Origin: a virus
Taxonomy: Duplodnaviria; Heunggongvirae; Uroviricota; Caudoviricetes; Drexlerviridae
Strand: one strand, 5' to 3'
DNA: 4,116 bases
Virus record (IMG/VR): IMGVR_UViG_2579778786_000003
Of the stretch, positions 1 to 4,116 are shown in pieces. Position 1 is the stretch's first letter, and each line of letters starts with the position of its first letter. The position numbers were made by a program, and so were the translations under genes. Below the pieces are notes generated by a model, which worked only from the letters and a program-made list of their open reading frames with translations, had not been told where the DNA came from and ran no database searches.

Positions 1-138
1 GCCAATCGCAACCGAGTGCGTATGAGCACCAATACCGACAGTATGTGCGTGTGTACCTGCGCTTGCAGCAGTACCCGATACAGAGTGCGCGTGACGCGGT
101 AAATTTAAAAATCGACAAATATCGTCCAGGAGCGCCAT
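1..138 (-). pseudogene. Orphan fragment encoding a lambda Stf-type C-terminal His-x-His repeat tail fiber domain; 3' end runs off the window start
   Basis: The minus-strand frame with codons 138..136, 135..133 and so on reads MALLDDICRFLNLPRHAHSVSGTAASAGTHAHTVGIGAHTHSVAIG and continues past position 1. The part from about nt 96 down resembles the lambda Stf C-terminal region as I recall it (SHSHSLSGTAVSAGAHAHTVGIGAHQHPVVIG). The frame is open back to a TGA at 207..205, but the only ATG (138) has no convincing SD, so this looks like a remnant rather than an independently expressed gene. Confidence 0.5.
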
Positions 139-205
139 TTTCAATGGCTGGAGATAGCAATCAACATGTGTTGTTTGCAATGTTTGGCGAAATTCACTGA
201 TTTTT

Positions 206-225
206 CATGCCCCACCCATGCCCCA
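206..225. repeat. Tandem direct repeat, 2 x CATGCCCCA separated by CC
   Basis: Plus strand 206..214 CATGCCCCA, 215..216 CC, 217..225 CATGCCCCA. It lies between the gene B stop (266) and the stf C-terminal fragment, next to an AT-rich tract. Confidence 0.6.
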
Positions 226-265
226 AGAGGCCTGCCACGCGAAATCTCCCATCAATTGACAGCAA

Positions 266-583
266 CTAAACAACCGCATTGTCCTGGCGCACATCGCAGA
301 TAGTAAACGTCACGACGCCGATGACATTAACATCGTCCAAGGCCTCGCCCTCGATCGCTTCGCCATCTTCGGTAATCAGCGACTTTCCTCTCAGCGTGGC
401 AAGCTCCGTCCCGCCGCCGTGCTGGATCAGAACCTGACTACCTTGTGATGGCTTCAGGGAGATATCCAGCACAACGTAACCGCCTGAACGCTCGAAGAGG
501 CGCGTATTTGGCCCAACACTGCAGATCGAGTTAACCGTTAATCGCTGTTCCGTGTAGTCCGTCGCCGGTGATGGAAAGCCCAT
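266..583 (-). CDS. Hypothetical acidic protein (105 aa), second gene of the coupled operon
   Basis: ATG at 583..581 is preceded by GGGGAGGA (598..591) with a 7-nt spacer, embedded in the 3' end of the upstream gene. It runs 105 codons to TAG at 268..266. Protein: MGFPSPATDYTEQRLTVNSICSVGPNTRLFERSGGYVVLDISLKPSQGSQVLIQHGGGTELATLRGKSLITEDGEAIEGEALDDVNVIGVVTFTICDVRQDNAVV. Net acidic, no signal peptide or transmembrane segment apparent. The ORF track uses an upstream GTG (616) that would overlap the first gene by 34 nt; ATG 583 is preferred. Confidence 0.65.
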   Translation of the reverse strand: MGFPSPATDYTEQRLTVNSICSVGPNTRLFERSGGYVVLDISLKPSQGSQVLIQHGGGTELATLRGKSLITEDGEAIEGEALDDVNVIGVVTFTICDVRQDNAVV

Positions 584-822
584 TACAGAATCCTCCCCAT
601 GTTGGCCATCATCCACAGGCAGTTTTCACTATGCTCTGCCGTTTTGTCGACGAAATACGTTTGCTCGCGTGCGATCCAGGAGTTCGCCTCCACCTCGGAA
701 AAATGGATGCCGCGCCGGCGCAGCGCGGTAACGAAGTCGCGGGTGTGAAGGTACTGGAACCCCTTGGAACTGCGCAATACCGACTCGCGGAACGCCGCTG
801 CGATGTCTGACTGTCGAAGCAT
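583..822 (-). CDS. Hypothetical small basic protein (79 aa), first gene of a translationally coupled two-gene operon downstream of the tail fiber
   Basis: ATG at 822..820 is preceded by GGGAGGG (835..829) with a 6-nt spacer. It runs 79 codons to TAA at 585..583, which overlaps the ATG of the next gene (TAATG). Protein: MLRQSDIAAAFRESVLRSSKGFQYLHTRDFVTALRRRGIHFSEVEANSWIAREQTYFVDKTAEHSENCLWMMANMGRIL. It is Arg-rich with no hydrophobic segment. The ORF track starts this frame at an upstream TTG (837); the ATG with the SD is preferred. Local GC is about 60-65 percent. Confidence 0.65.
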   Translation of the reverse strand: MLRQSDIAAAFRESVLRSSKGFQYLHTRDFVTALRRRGIHFSEVEANSWIAREQTYFVDKTAEHSENCLWMMANMGRIL

Positions 823-834
823 GATCTGCCCTCC

Positions 835-866
835 CAATAATACTGCACAAACATACAGTATTATTG
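835..866. repeat. Perfect 11-bp inverted repeat (CAATAATACTG, 10-nt spacer, CAGTATTATTG) in the stf to gene A intergenic region, abutting the gene A Shine-Dalgarno
   Basis: Plus strand 835..845 is CAATAATACTG and 856..866 is CAGTATTATTG, which are exact reverse complements. On the minus-strand transcript the 3' arm ends at nt 835, which is also the first G of the SD GGGAGGG. Confidence 0.7.
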
Positions 867-893
867 TTGTGAGGGAAGATCAATGTAGGAGTT

Positions 894-3800
894 TTACATT
901 AACTTCAAAACAGCAGAAACGATCGGCAGCCCACCTCCAGTTGCAGGGTCAGGATGGATTCCATCAGCATTGAACCAGTTGCGTGGAGATGTCGATGCGT
1001 AATCAGATGGCTTGTCTCCGTAGTCAATCTGGAGATTGTGATAAGCCACCCTGTTTAGCGCACAAACATCCCGTACAACAGACGCATACGCCGCCATTGC
1101 CACATTGTTATTCCTCTGGTTTTCACATGGCATGATCACCAGAACATCAGCCAACGGGCATGCAGTGCGAACTGCTGTGATTATCGTCTGAATATCGGCA
1201 GCAAACGCGGATGGATCACGGGATGATGTCTGGTCATTGGTCCCATGCAGAATTGTCACCAGATTGGGGGCCAGCGCGGTGAATGCTGCTTTCCATGTTG
1301 CGCTGGTAACCTGCGCCGCCCATTGTTGAGCAGAACTCCCCGTCGCACCCAGCTTGTGAGACCGGACACCATCTGTCGCGGTCTGCACATCCAGACCGTA
1401 CAGTTCAACGGTTCCTGATACCGGACTGAACCAGATATTGAAAGCTGTTGCCGGTACCGTGAGGCTGACAACCGCAAGGTCAGTGAACGTGCTCAGGTCG
1501 ATAGTTGTCCAGTTAACTCCACCATCTGTGCTGTATTTAACACTCCCCTGAGGTTTAGCAAAAAGGCGGACTGACGATGCATTTGCCGGTATACCGTTCG
1601 CCCTGAAAGTAGCGGTGGTATCAGAAGACGAGACGCTACAAATATCTGCGCTCTGTGCTGCCGCATATGTCGGAGTCCATGTTCCTGTTTTGGTCAAAGT
1701 TATCTGACCAAGTATATTGCCGTTATACTGCCCGAAACCCGCCTCAGACGGATAGCCAAATCCGATATAGCCGATACCTGCACTGCCATAGTCAGCCTGC
1801 ATTTTTCCGGCAAAAATTCCGCTCCATCGGTTCCACAGGTGAGTCCAGCTATCGCCAATGTGCGCTGTTACCAGTGTTGCTGACTGAGAAAGCCGCCTGT
1901 TCATCAGGCGCTTATGTGTCTCTCTGAGTGAATCCTGATTTAACGTGAATGCTCTGGAAGTTGTGTAATCGACATCCTGTCGGTACGTATCATCACTCAG
2001 TACAGGAGAGCCATTCCCAACAAAGAGCCCCCTGGCAACAACATAAACACCTGCAGCGCCAACAGTCTGCCCATTCATAAGGCGGATTTGCAGATATCCA
2101 GCCGTATCAACAATAGTCTGGGTGATAGCTATTGTGCGAACCAGAGTCTGATATTGCTGGGTTGGGAACTGGAACAACTGAGACGAACTGTCACTAATAA
2201 CAGTCCCGCTAGCCGTCCGGAAATATGCTGCCACGTTGATTGCCTGAGACGATACCACACCCAGCGCTACTGTCAGCGAATCTCCAGCACGCAGTCCAAG
2301 CCGCTTTGCTGAAATGTTAATATCCGTCTGACCACCACCTACTGGGATAATCAGAGATTTTTTCCTAAGAAACGGGCTGCCAGAATAATCCGCAACATAT
2401 GCTGGTAGTGAAACCCCTGCTACTTGAGCAGGACCCCAACCATCAATACACGTTTCCCCGCACTCGTAGCGGCGATACCAGGGATCAGGCCACAGGTTAA
2501 TCTGCTGGCGCTGGTATCCTGAATACTCTGCTGGAAGGCTACCGTAAATAAACTCAGGGCGAGATCGTCCGAAAGCTACACCTATGGCAACCAGCTCCTT
2601 GACCATAGCCCCTGATGCGCGAAGCGTAAGGTATGTCGTTGATGCTGGTATTGTCAGCGTGGTACTTCCATCATTAAAGCCGGATGCTGATGCGGCAATA
2701 GTTGCCGAAGAAAGTACTCCGGATGCATTACGACAGAAAACCTGAAACGTGCCACCCGTTGACGCGAACCATGCAGCCAGACGGACAGTGATTGTGTCTC
2801 CCGGCTTAACCCCCATCGAACTGAGAGAAATAATACGATCAGCACCAACTCCTGACGTGTTTTGGATCCCGGTCTTACCCCATGGTGAATTTGCGCTGTT
2901 CTGAATCAATGTTCCTGCGTAACTCATGGCGTCAACCACGCCTGCAGGAAGTCCTTGCTTAGGACGAACGGAAAGCATCTCGCCAAAAGGGTCGTACACG
3001 AGGTTATCAGGGGTACCCAATGCCTCCTGGTACGCTTTTGAAGGGAAAGACCTTGTGAATTCAGGAGTAACATCACCAATAGCTGCGGCATAGACACCGA
3101 TTTTGAACGCCCCTGACACAGTGTTTTGCACCCGAATTCGTATGGATGATGCGCCAGATGGCACAGCAATGACCACAACCGGAGAGGATATACCAGCAAC
3201 CAGTGGAGAGGCCTCCCCTGTAGTGATGGTTACTCCTGCTGAATCAAGCCAATAAATCTGTAACTTGCCTCCAGCGTTCTCGAACCATACCAAAACAGAG
3301 AAAGCTAAAGTGTCTCCTGGTTTTATCTGTAATTTTGACACATCGTAATATTTATCAAACGATGTTACACCAGAAGCTTGAATAACAGGTGTTGGAAGCG
3401 GCAAATTAACATCAGTAGTAGAAAATGTTGGCGTAGCGCCTTTATACCAATCCCAGTTAGCGAATGTTAAAAGGCTTGAGGAATATTCATTAAATGCGTC
3501 GAATAAAATGTTGCCTCTACGCAAAGCGGAATACGCTGGAATTTTTCTTCCGGTTGCTACCAACGTACCAGCGGTATTGATAACCTCAATTGAAAGATTA
3601 TTGTCATCTGAGCTGCGATAATAAGCAGTTGATCCCACCGGTATATTACCCGCAGCTGCGTCTGCCTGCGCCGCAGCCAGCGTCGGAAACTCGCGGATTG
3701 TCCCTGTTATGGCTGCCGTGCCTGGCTGCTTTGCCTGCAATACGGCCACGCCAGCATTGTTTTGATACTGCCATGCAGCAGAAAGCGCATCTGGCCCCTG

Positions 3801-4116
3801 AGCTACCCAGAACGACTGGCCGTCAGTAGTTGCTGCCAACCCTGCAATGGTGCCATCAGGATCGCTGGCAGTCTTATAGAACGTGAACTTATTCTGTGCG
3901 TAGTCAGAAGCGTTATTTGCATACTCTTCAGCCTGTGCTGCTGAACCTGCGGCTGCCGTTGCCGATTCGGATGAGGCTGCTGTGTTCTGCGCCACTGCGG
4001 ACGCGTTACGCGCCACCTCTTCCACCATCAGTTCAAAACGGCGCAGTGCCTCCGGACGGGCATCATCCTCCGTCATGGCACCGAGAAAATCATTCAGCGT
4101 ACCGGGTCGGGAATCT
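894..4116 (-). CDS. stf: Side tail fiber protein, 5'-partial (start outside window): lambda Stf-like N-terminal segment, three tandem beta-rich modules, C-terminal SGNH/GDSL hydrolase (putative polysaccharide esterase/deacetylase) domain
   Basis: One uninterrupted minus-strand frame from the window end to TAA at 896..894. The frame stays open upstream of the ORF-track Met at 4076: in-frame codons 4115..4077 read DSRPGTLNDFLGA, so the ATG at 4076 is an internal Met. The segment DSRPGTLNDFLGAMTEDDARPEALRRFELMVEEVARNAS matches my recollection of lambda Stf (...PGTLNDFLCAMTEDDARPEVLRRLELMVEEVARNAS...). The C-terminal ~320 aa carry the SGNH signature blocks (see separate feature). Confidence 0.9.
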   Translation of the reverse strand, partial: DSRPGTLNDFLGAMTEDDARPEALRRFELMVEEVARNASAVAQNTAASSESATAAAGSAAQAEEYANNASDYAQNKFTFYKTASDPDGTIAGLAATTDGQSFWVAQGPDALSAAWQYQNNAGVAVLQAKQPGTAAITGTIREFPTLAAAQADAAAGNIPVGSTAYYRSSDDNNLSIEVINTAGTLVATGRKIPAYSALRRGNILFDAFNEYSSSLLTFANWDWYKGATPTFSTTDVNLPLPTPVIQASGVTSFDKYYDVSKLQIKPGDTLAFSVLVWFENAGGKLQIYWLDSAGVTITTGEASPLVAGISSPVVVIAVPSGASSIRIRVQNTVSGAFKIGVYAAAIGDVTPEFTRSFPSKAYQEALGTPDNLVYDPFGEMLSVRPKQGLPAGVVDAMSYAGTLIQNSANSPWGKTGIQNTSGVGADRIISLSSMGVKPGDTITVRLAAWFASTGGTFQVFCRNASGVLSSATIAASASGFNDGSTTLTIPASTTYLTLRASGAMVKELVAIGVAFGRSRPEFIYGSLPAEYSGYQRQQINLWPDPWYRRYECGETCIDGWGPAQVAGVSLPAYVADYSGSPFLRKKSLIIPVGGGQTDINISAKRLGLRAGDSLTVALGVVSSQAINVAAYFRTASGTVISDSSSQLFQFPTQQYQTLVRTIAITQTIVDTAGYLQIRLMNGQTVGAAGVYVVARGLFVGNGSPVLSDDTYRQDVDYTTSRAFTLNQDSLRETHKRLMNRRLSQSATLVTAHIGDSWTHLWNRWSGIFAGKMQADYGSAGIGYIGFGYPSEAGFGQYNGNILGQITLTKTGTWTPTYAAAQSADICSVSSSDTTATFRANGIPANASSVRLFAKPQGSVKYSTDGGVNWTTIDLSTFTDLAVVSLTVPATAFNIWFSPVSGTVELYGLDVQTATDGVRSHKLGATGSSAQQWAAQVTSATWKAAFTALAPNLVTILHGTNDQTSSRDPSAFAADIQTIITAVRTACPLADVLVIMPCENQRNNNVAMAAYASVVRDVCALNRVAYHNLQIDYGDKPSDYASTSPRNWFNADGIHPDPATGGGLPIVSAVLKLM
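897..1862 (-). other. SGNH/GDSL hydrolase catalytic domain inside the tail fiber CDS
   Basis: Block I HIGDSWTH with the nucleophile Ser codon at 1850..1848 (GDS = 1856..1848). Block III LHGTNDQ (GTND = 1244..1233). Block V NADGIHP (DGIHP = 965..951) a few residues from the C-terminus. The order Ser, Asn, then Asp-x-x-His is canonical for SGNH esterases. All codons were checked by hand against the sequence. Confidence 0.8.
2007..3371 (-). other. Three tandem, diverged ~115-130 aa beta-rich repeat modules within the tail fiber (putative carbohydrate-binding modules)
   Basis: The repeated protein pattern is visible by eye. Module 1 (about nt 3371..3027): VSKLQIKPGDTLAFSVLVWFENAGGKLQIYWLDSAGV ... 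IGDVTPEFTRSFPSKAY. Module 2 (about 2864..2517): LSSMGVKPGDTITVRLAAWFASTGGTFQVFCRNASGV ... FGRSRPEFIYGSLPAEY. Module 3 (about 2354..2007) is weaker: LGLRAGDSLTVALGVV ... AAYFRTASGTV. Boundaries are approximate. Confidence 0.55.

Follow-up and report, generated by a model that had tools for sequence, protein, structure and literature searches.

The DNA analysed here is a stretch of 4,116 nucleotides from a Drexlerviridae virus (Caudoviricetes; IMG/VR record IMGVR_UViG_2579778786_000003), called the window throughout, in which two small genes, termed A and B, lie on the minus strand downstream of a tail fibre gene. An earlier note had described the pair, from the letters alone, as a translationally coupled module of unrecognised function. 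The analysis presented here points to a LexA-controlled cassette whose second gene encodes a UmuD'-like protein. The genes and their control elements are located as follows.

583-822, minus strand: gene A, ATG at 822-820 and stop codon TAA at 585-583; 79 amino acids (aa).
829-835, minus strand: Shine-Dalgarno (SD) sequence of gene A, GGGAGGG, read directly from the sequence; the spacing to the ATG is 6 nt.
266-583, minus strand: gene B, ATG at 583-581 and stop codon TAG at 268-266; 105 aa.
591-598, minus strand: SD of gene B, GGGGAGGA, read directly from the sequence, within the 3' end of A.
841-860, no strand assigned: LexA (SOS) box TACTGTATGTTTGTGCAGTA, an exact TACTG-N10-CAGTA with 16 of 20 consensus positions.
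878-883, minus strand: -35-like hexamer TTGATC, 17 nt upstream of TACTGT, recognised by homology with umuDC.
855-860, minus strand: -10-like hexamer TACTGT, contained in the LexA box and placed as in the umuDC promoter according to the alignment.
822-842 and 862-882, minus strand: extended dyad, 21 nt and imperfect, with the LexA box at its apex.

The two open reading frames (ORFs) and their strong SDs were thus found as described before. The stop codon of A and the start codon of B overlap in TAATG, the A of the ATG of B being the final base of the stop codon of A, and the computed isoelectric points of 9.1 for A and 4.4 for B agree with the description of a basic first and an acidic second product. 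Related copies were collected from 56 loci, comprising 13 annotated phage or E. coli loci and 43 species-representative genomes that encode a homologue of A. A UmuD'-like ORF (MGF[PAV]SPAxDY...) followed A in 48 of the 56 loci, and in 45 of those 48 the two ORFs shared a 1-nt stop/start overlap (TAATG or TGATG). Both genes were found to be under purifying selection, with ratios of nonsynonymous to synonymous substitution rates (dN/dS) of 0.06-0.24 against relatives that are 77-92% identical. The pair is, therefore, a real coupled two-gene module, and since the overlap is conserved and each ORF is selected separately, A and B are not the two halves of a frameshifted single gene, a possibility that the earlier note had itself raised against its proposal. 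A was paired with short forms of B (104-108 aa) and with long, HumD-like forms (123-129 aa; HK140 and loci L027 and L038). UmuD'-like genes without A exist in P1 and N15; the reverse, A without a B-type gene, is rare and was seen in HK225, where a DNA invertase follows instead. A UmuC homologue was encoded in none of the loci examined and, therefore, a host partner is required.

The perfect inverted repeat that had been noticed next to the SD of A, and taken as a possible operator or translational control element, has 11-nt arms at 835-845 and 856-866 separated by a 10-nt spacer and touches the SD; its core is the LexA box. In shuffled sequences, TACTG-N10-CAGTA was expected only 0.06 times per window. 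A LexA box with a CTG-N10-CAG core and 15-19 of 20 matches was kept in 50 of the 56 related loci, 11-23 nt upstream of the ATG of A in most of the box-bearing ones, and many of these boxes have the same sequence as the one of umuDC in E. coli, TACTGTATATAAAAACAGTA. Membership of the cassette in the LexA (SOS) regulon, as an operon repressed by LexA and inducible by DNA damage, is well supported in silico.

The similarity to umuDC is not restricted to the operator. Approximately 100 bp upstream of A are colinear with the umuDC promoter of E. coli K-12 (ATTGATAG...ATTGATCTGC...AAAACTACTGTATATAAAAACAGTA...GCAGAT): ATTGATAG is followed after about 12 nt by ATTGATCTGC, which holds the -35 hexamer TTGATC, and then by a spacer, TACTGT and GCAGAT ahead of the ATG. 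The K-12 umuDC promoter and most of the related loci have ATTGATC at this same spacing. We infer the cassette promoter from this homology, with transcription starting near 848, and the colinear region together with the shared elements argues that the cassette descends from a umuDC-type operon. The chromosomal umuDC operon of E. coli thus has a homologous promoter/operator, with an SOS box identical to that in many of the loci, but the cassette has no umuC and lacks the 24-residue pro-peptide of UmuD; in place of the pro-peptide, the 79-aa ORF stands between the promoter and the UmuD'-like coding region.

Two further observations concern the box. In two elements, the end of the ISL3-family insertion sequence ISKox3 (...CAAGGGAAGACCC) abuts the centre of the LexA box, and the left half-site is removed: the IncX3 plasmid pP16NDM-503 (locus L063, 3380-3503) and Enterobacter phage BHUENT6 (L013, 2340-2503). 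The 8-bp target duplication of ISKox3 given for IncX3, ATATGCAT (PMC6158458), coincides with the centre of the LexA box, and the operon would escape control by LexA once the element has inserted. The exact DNA of the window was found in E. coli chromosomes, for example in strain CFS3313, where it lies within a lambdoid prophage whose tail end abuts tRNA-Pro and yejM. The nin region of the CFS3313 prophage (L003, 18786-19112; NZ_CP026939.2, 1703785-1704111) encodes a protein of 108 aa, WP_000210170.1, that consists of the LexA DNA-binding domain alone (PF01726, 3e-19) without an S24 cleavage domain; such a protein could act as a non-cleavable LexA mimic that represses SOS boxes again, that of the cassette included, during lytic growth.

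The earlier statement that neither product can be assigned to a family did not hold for B. B matched PHROG 3469 ('UmuD-like') with an E-value of 1.9e-46 and PHROG 811 with 4e-10, a sequence search matched UmuD and UmuD' chains in the PDB at 1e-4, and the homologues of P1, P7 and N15 were recovered by tblastn. B was aligned with E. coli UmuD, P1 HumD, N15 gp26 and HK140 gp28 and is homologous to residues 25-139 of UmuD. Its N-terminus, M-GFPSPATDYTEQR, aligns to G25-R37 of UmuD, the start corresponding to Gly25, the first residue after the self-cleavage site, and the arm motif GFPSPAxDYxEQR is kept almost unchanged (start MGFPSPAxDY) and is conserved in 48 homologues of B. A 12-aa deletion spans the loop of the catalytic Ser60, an equivalent of Lys97 is absent, and the positions of E93, T95 and K97 of UmuD are occupied by T, L and T. 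Both the Ser/Lys dyad and the Ala/Cys-Gly cleavage site of the active self-cleaving S24 peptidases (LexA, CI, UmuD) are absent in B, in which Peptidase_S24 of Pfam was not detected. By its sequence, B is an acidic, UmuD'/HumD-type protein of predicted S24 fold, without a pro-peptide and without the catalytic Ser/Lys, that is, a putatively 'pre-cleaved' and protease-dead look-alike of UmuD'. The AlphaFold2 (AF2) model of B had its top Foldseek matches in UmuD' (1i4v, 1umu, 1ay9), the UmuD-RecA complex (8gmt) and the C-terminal domain of LexA, all with a probability of 1.00 and with weak E-values of 0.02-0.06.

In a published AlphaFold model, UmuD' has its conserved N-terminal arm adjoining UmuC's active site, and UmuD' without the arm is non-mutable according to that study (PMC11791011). 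Since B keeps the UmuD' arm, we argue that it engages the UmuC of the host. By analogy, B would take part in UmuC-dependent translesion synthesis or mutagenesis; such a function is annotated only for P1 HumD, which according to the P1 record 'functionally complements E. coli UmuD''.

The orphan UmuD' genes of P1 (HumD), N15 (gp26; phiKO2 gp23) and HK140 (gp28) are the nearest known counterparts of B. Like B, their products start with MGFPSPAxDY and have no pro-peptide, and the genes have a LexA box just upstream and no umuC partner, and are located towards the end of the late or tail region. The boxes of P1 humD and N15 gene 26 are comparable to that of the window, the one in P1 being annotated as a LexA site. 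In HK140, a homologue of A precedes gp28 with the same 1-nt overlap as in the window. B is 30-37% identical to the three homologues but 24 aa shorter, without the Ser60 loop, the Lys and the C-terminal SGEFDD tail, and it falls into PHROG 3469 and they into PHROG 811. P1 and N15 differ further in that they have no gene A, and P1 has a divergent lxr.

A is a member of phrog_3893 (function unknown) and belongs to no known family: Pfam, NCBIfam, PADLOC and a PDB sequence search gave no match, the profile of A finding nothing significant in the PDB. An exhaustive HMMER scan of 1.8 billion representatives revealed only 65 relatives, and those that could be traced to an organism came from Enterobacterales phages, prophages and plasmids. 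The AF2 model of A is all-helical with four helices (predicted local distance difference test score, pLDDT, of 75.6), and Foldseek found nothing below an E-value of 0.4 in the PDB; the model is weakly reminiscent of a helix-turn-helix (HTH) protein, with the conserved residues N47, R52 and Q54 placed in the putative recognition helix. Because its association with UmuD'-type genes is near-exclusive and translationally coupled, in phages as well as on plasmids, A is predicted to work with B.

Several other candidate identities for A were considered and rejected. A is not an expanded UmuD pro-peptide, as the local alignment with residues 1-24 of UmuD was no better than chance (2427 of 5000 shuffles scored as high or higher), and not a homologue of DinI or ImpC, since PF06183 was not matched at E <= 1 and the model is all-helical (the dinI of HK140 scores 1e-22). 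A C-terminal GRV(L/I/F) that would mimic the C-terminus of UmuC (LRVK) is absent in the Erwinia and IncX3 forms, and the A-B fusions in the database (P0199, P0173 and P0094) look like artefacts of frameshifts or contig ends. As had been stated before for both products, no Tfa family was matched. A literature search by accession or PHROG identifier found no paper on the A or B proteins.

The inverted repeat extends beyond the LexA box. In the 21-nt dyad, the SD/AUG arm at 822-842 (...GGGAGGGCAGATCA) has as its pairing partner the anti-SD arm at 862-882 (GATCTTCCCTC..., just downstream of the -35). In RNA read through from the fibre gene, this yields a hairpin of -31.9 kcal/mol (z -5.7) in which the SD and the AUG of A are buried, whereas a transcript from the presumed start at about 848 is unstructured (z +1.0). 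In 46 distinct loci the arms vary in sequence yet stay complementary (CACTCC/GGAGTG, CCTCAC/GTGAGG, TCTCTTT/AAAGAGA). Pairing was quantified by duplex energies for each locus in place of RNAalifold; the arms of one locus paired better with each other than arms taken from separate loci (the observed mean was reached in 0 of 2000 permutations), and z was below -2 against shuffled left arms in 17 of the 46 loci. Loci with a co-oriented upstream gene showed stronger pairing (mean -14.8 kcal/mol, n=22) than those with a divergent one (mean -9.0 kcal/mol, n=22; one-sided p = 0.006, uncorrected for phylogeny). The palindrome is, as had been proposed, not only an operator but probably also a translational control element: the hairpin would block translation of A-B from late-operon read-through and leave the LexA-controlled transcript as the only source of the proteins.

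GATC (Dam) sites lie at 878-881, within the -35 TTGATC, and at 823-826, just ahead of the ATG of A (CAGATCATG). Many loci conserve both, and umuDC shares the one in the -35. Since the two sites form the base of the hairpin, a role of methylation is not separable from one in pairing. A second hairpin, GC-rich and terminator-like, lies inside A (709-728, minus strand: CCGCGCTGCGCCGGCGCGG followed by CATCCATTTT); the number of such hairpins equals that expected from shuffles, and it is probably a chance occurrence.

The earlier note had suggested a survey of the gene neighbourhood as a means to distinguish independent cargo from a fibre accessory. The cassette was found, with the last tail gene on one side and attP/int on the other, in several kinds of elements: in HK022/HK97-like siphoviruses (HK140, mEp390, Flotzy, LAU1), in Erwinia phages, in Klebsiella prophage-derived phages, in a P22-like element (podovirus) of E. 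coli HS and in a myovirus-like prophage that adjoins yecD, and hence with three tail morphotypes in all. The adjacent fibre or spike genes are mutually unrelated and of at least five unrelated types. Of 5426 complete E. coli genomes, 146 contained the pair, as did many Klebsiella and Enterobacter prophages, and a tblastn search of PLSDB with A matched 955 plasmids, 903 of them predicted to be conjugative. In the one plasmid that was inspected, a conjugative IncX3 plasmid with blaNDM-5, a 79-aa A-like gene lies 2 nt upstream of an 'S24 peptidase' starting with MGFPSPATDY...; the IncX3 gene at the position of B has been named umuD (PMC6158458). Given the unrelated fibres and spikes, the three morphotypes and the plasmids, the module is generic cargo of mobile genetic elements and independent of the fibre in the window.

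A divergent dinI was found in 10 loci at a distance of 86-102 bp upstream of A, and a single LexA box is common to both (L005 3410-3676, L007 2148-2414, L008 2162-2449, L011 2134-2400 and six genome loci), so that dinI and the cassette form a small SOS island where the prophage ends. The prophage to which the window belongs has a frameshifted DinI-like gene near attR (L001, 16263-16510). Genes or remnants of serine invertases were repeatedly associated with the cassette: in HK225 (L008, 2501-3408) an A of 99 aa is followed by the DNA invertase where B would be, in phages vB_EcoS-733R5 and 716R3 about 1.3 kb lie between A and B and a site-specific recombinase is annotated at the match of A, and among the A proteins P0040, P0080, P0119 and P0145 of the database some have N-terminal extensions that match resolvase or HTH_7 in Pfam. 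This suggests that the cassette inserted beside fibre inversion modules.

In sum, we favour, if only somewhat above even chances, the reading that A-B is a LexA-repressed cassette of mobile elements that stems from a umuDC-type operon and supplies an SOS-induced surrogate or modulator of UmuD' for the UmuC/RecA* of the host, with A as a coupled accessory. Its control by the SOS response has good in silico support; its biochemical role is an inference. In an undamaged lysogen, the operon would be kept off by LexA. Upon DNA damage, RecA* would bring about cleavage of LexA, and A and B would be made in about equal amounts from a short, unstructured leader. B would then join the UmuC/RecA* pathway of the host via its UmuD'-type arm, as a ready-made accessory subunit of polymerase V (Pol V) like P1 HumD; the slow RecA*-dependent cleavage of UmuD would be bypassed and replication of damaged host and prophage DNA would be helped. 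A would be the partner of B and bind either B or DNA. As a second layer of control, the anti-SD, which lies upstream of the SOS start and is thus contained in the read-through mRNA, would pair with the SD and AUG of A, such that A-B is translated only from the LexA-controlled transcript.

Several findings weigh against this reading. A generic sigma-70 scan called no promoter and the hexamers are weak by consensus (the -35 scores 7 of 12), and the transcription start near 848 has the status of a prediction. B matched the HumD family of NCBIfam with 6e-11 but, at 42.3 bits, stayed below the equivalog cutoff of 120 bits and by this measure represents a divergent subfamily and not a HumD equivalog; its AF2 model is of moderate confidence (pLDDT 67). 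In the published Pol V model, the C-terminus of UmuC is held by S60, E93, T95 and K97 of UmuD (PMC11791011). All four are lost in short B, which may bind UmuC in another mode or be an inhibitor instead of an activator. The statistics on the hairpin were not corrected for the relatedness of the loci, and RNAalifold, run on a MAFFT alignment of 26 leaders, recovered the LexA-box core alone and not the outer helix, because the outer arms shift register. Lastly, both the role of A and its binding to B are putative.

The loss of S60, E93, T95 and K97 in short B makes an inhibitory or modulatory role a serious rival, which we regard as possible though distinctly less probable. B would act as a damper or decoy that titrates RecA*, UmuC or UmuD/UmuD' into inactive complexes, assisted by A, and would limit Pol V mutagenesis or slow the cleavage of LexA and CI in the manner of DinI or PsiB. 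Short B has lost the cleft residues and yet kept the arm, S24 domains bind in the groove of the RecA filament (8gmt, 8gms and 8gmu are among the fold matches), the cassette often stands beside a divergent dinI under the same box, and it occurs on conjugative plasmids, where SOS-modulating genes are common. However, the long forms HK140 gp28, N15 gp26 and P1 HumD keep residues of the E93/K97 type, P1 HumD is annotated as complementing UmuD', and A is paired with long and short B alike.

We consider it unlikely that A and B form a two-piece regulator, in which an HTH-like A and an S24 dimerisation module, B, together make up a non-cleavable factor of the LexA/CI/UmuDAb kind, divided precisely at the cleavage site, which would redirect the transcription of host or prophage at a late stage of the SOS response. 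A is basic with its conserved N47, R52 and Q54 in the putative recognition helix, B starts at the residue that follows the cleavage site of UmuD/LexA, and the genes are coupled and their products oppositely charged, all of which would fit; but no sequence link of A to LexA_DNA_bind or any other HTH family was found, B resembles specifically UmuD' (by its arm motif) and not LexA or CI, and besides the LexA box no candidate operator was found.

Less probable still is that A is a LexA-controlled antirepressor of the type of 186 Tum, Gifsy GfoA/GftA or N15 AntC, with a DinI-like side role for B. The 186 tum, Gifsy dinI-gfoA-irsA and N15 antC operons are LexA-controlled antirepressor operons outside the immunity region and, in outline like the cassette, have an SOS box that drives a small protein together with a homologue of an SOS modulator (PMC3121763). 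The repressors of the CFS3313 prophage, HK140 and EhrS_59, however, are all of the HTH+Peptidase_S24 architecture, that is, of the cleavable CI class induced by self-cleavage; the pair also occurs on plasmids without a phage immunity system (one inspected, IncX3), and no sequence relationship to these operons or similarity to known antirepressor families was found. The readings that had been offered first, a toxin-antitoxin or abortive-infection pair, an enzyme with its chaperone or a fibre-specific assembly factor, fit a small coupled module with basic and acidic products in a typical moron position but are hardly credible given that Pfam, NCBIfam and PADLOC returned no toxin-antitoxin or defence family, that B belongs to the UmuD' family, that the operator is a LexA box and not an antitoxin operator, and that the pair goes with no particular fibre, being found next to five or more mutually unrelated genes for fibres or spikes and also on plasmids that lack a fibre.

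Small genes next to UmuD-like genes are known from other DNA damage responses. The operon impCAB of plasmid TP110, which we take to consist of a small first gene followed by UmuD- and UmuC-like genes, resembles the cassette as a LexA-type mutagenesis operon on a mobile element with a small gene ahead of the UmuD-like gene. ImpC is DinI-like, whereas A did not match DinI (PF06183) and its predicted structure is all-helical, and impB/umuC is missing from the cassette. UmuDAb and DdrR interact directly. This system, for which a link between ddrR and UmuDAb in Acinetobacter is described (PMC3978071), likewise has a UmuD-family protein that acts in the response to DNA damage together with a small partner specific to the family. 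UmuDAb, however, is a full-length, cleavable, DNA-binding repressor and ddrR is transcribed divergently, whereas B lacks a DNA-binding extension and A is co-translated upstream of B.

The cassette lies, as described before, between the fibre gene and a 3' fragment of stf. The flanking features of the window are the following.

894-4076, minus strand: tail fibre ORF, 1060 aa, with a phage_tail_N segment and a C-terminal GDSL/SGNH domain (Pfam).
89-265, minus strand: non-coding tail of about 175 bp, defined by DNA homology with other copies of the cassette.
1-93, minus strand: stf 3' remnant with HxH repeats, translation HAHSVSGTAASAGTHAHTVGIGAHTHSVAIG; in RefSeq a partial coding sequence followed by tfa.

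The fibre ORF is co-oriented with the cassette and ends at 894, with the start of A 71 bases further on; a terminator scan called none between the fibre stop and the start of A, and the fibre ORF is the source of read-through transcription into the cassette. The reading frame of the fibre overruns the 3' edge of the window in minus-strand terms (894-4116). RefSeq annotates the fibre of the prophage (L001) in two parts, a pseudogene for the N-terminus (8649-9099) and, at 9660-12107, an 'SGNH/GDSL hydrolase family protein'. The fibre gene may be interrupted or of mosaic make-up, with an esterase domain at the C-terminus of its product (residues 904-1045). The homology of the non-coding tail with cassettes of E. 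coli and Klebsiella phages reaches to about 89-91 and halts at the stf remnant. The tail contains no convincing ORF, no Rfam match and no terminator call on the minus strand, and an Rfam scan of positions 1-1000 as a whole gave no match; it could be a 3' untranslated element or a recombination joint.

Mobile elements are already known to carry orphan UmuD' genes under LexA control, though these are poorly understood; new with respect to the literature found are A as a conserved partner, the descent of the promoter from umuDC and the anti-SD hairpin. Many orphan UmuD' genes thus travel as a fixed unit, made up of a umuDC-derived SOS promoter, a co-translated A and, in many copies, the hairpin. 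For annotation, this means that labels such as 'hypothetical', defence candidate or toxin-antitoxin candidate should be dropped for A and B. A bolder proposal, which we hold to be rather doubtful, is that A is a previously unrecognised fourth player in the mutasome or SOS control borne by mobile elements: an HTH-like protein that docks on orphan UmuD'-type proteins and either yields a two-piece, non-cleavable LexA/UmuDAb-like regulator or retargets UmuC, the pair being insulated from read-through by the anti-SD hairpin around the LexA box. If so, a module present in Enterobacterales prophages and IncX3-type backbones could influence damage-induced mutagenesis and the evolution of resistance. 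Likewise, the pair would modify the supply of mutations, and do so as a mobile factor, if it alters the speed or strength of Pol V-type mutagenesis after antibiotic-induced DNA damage.

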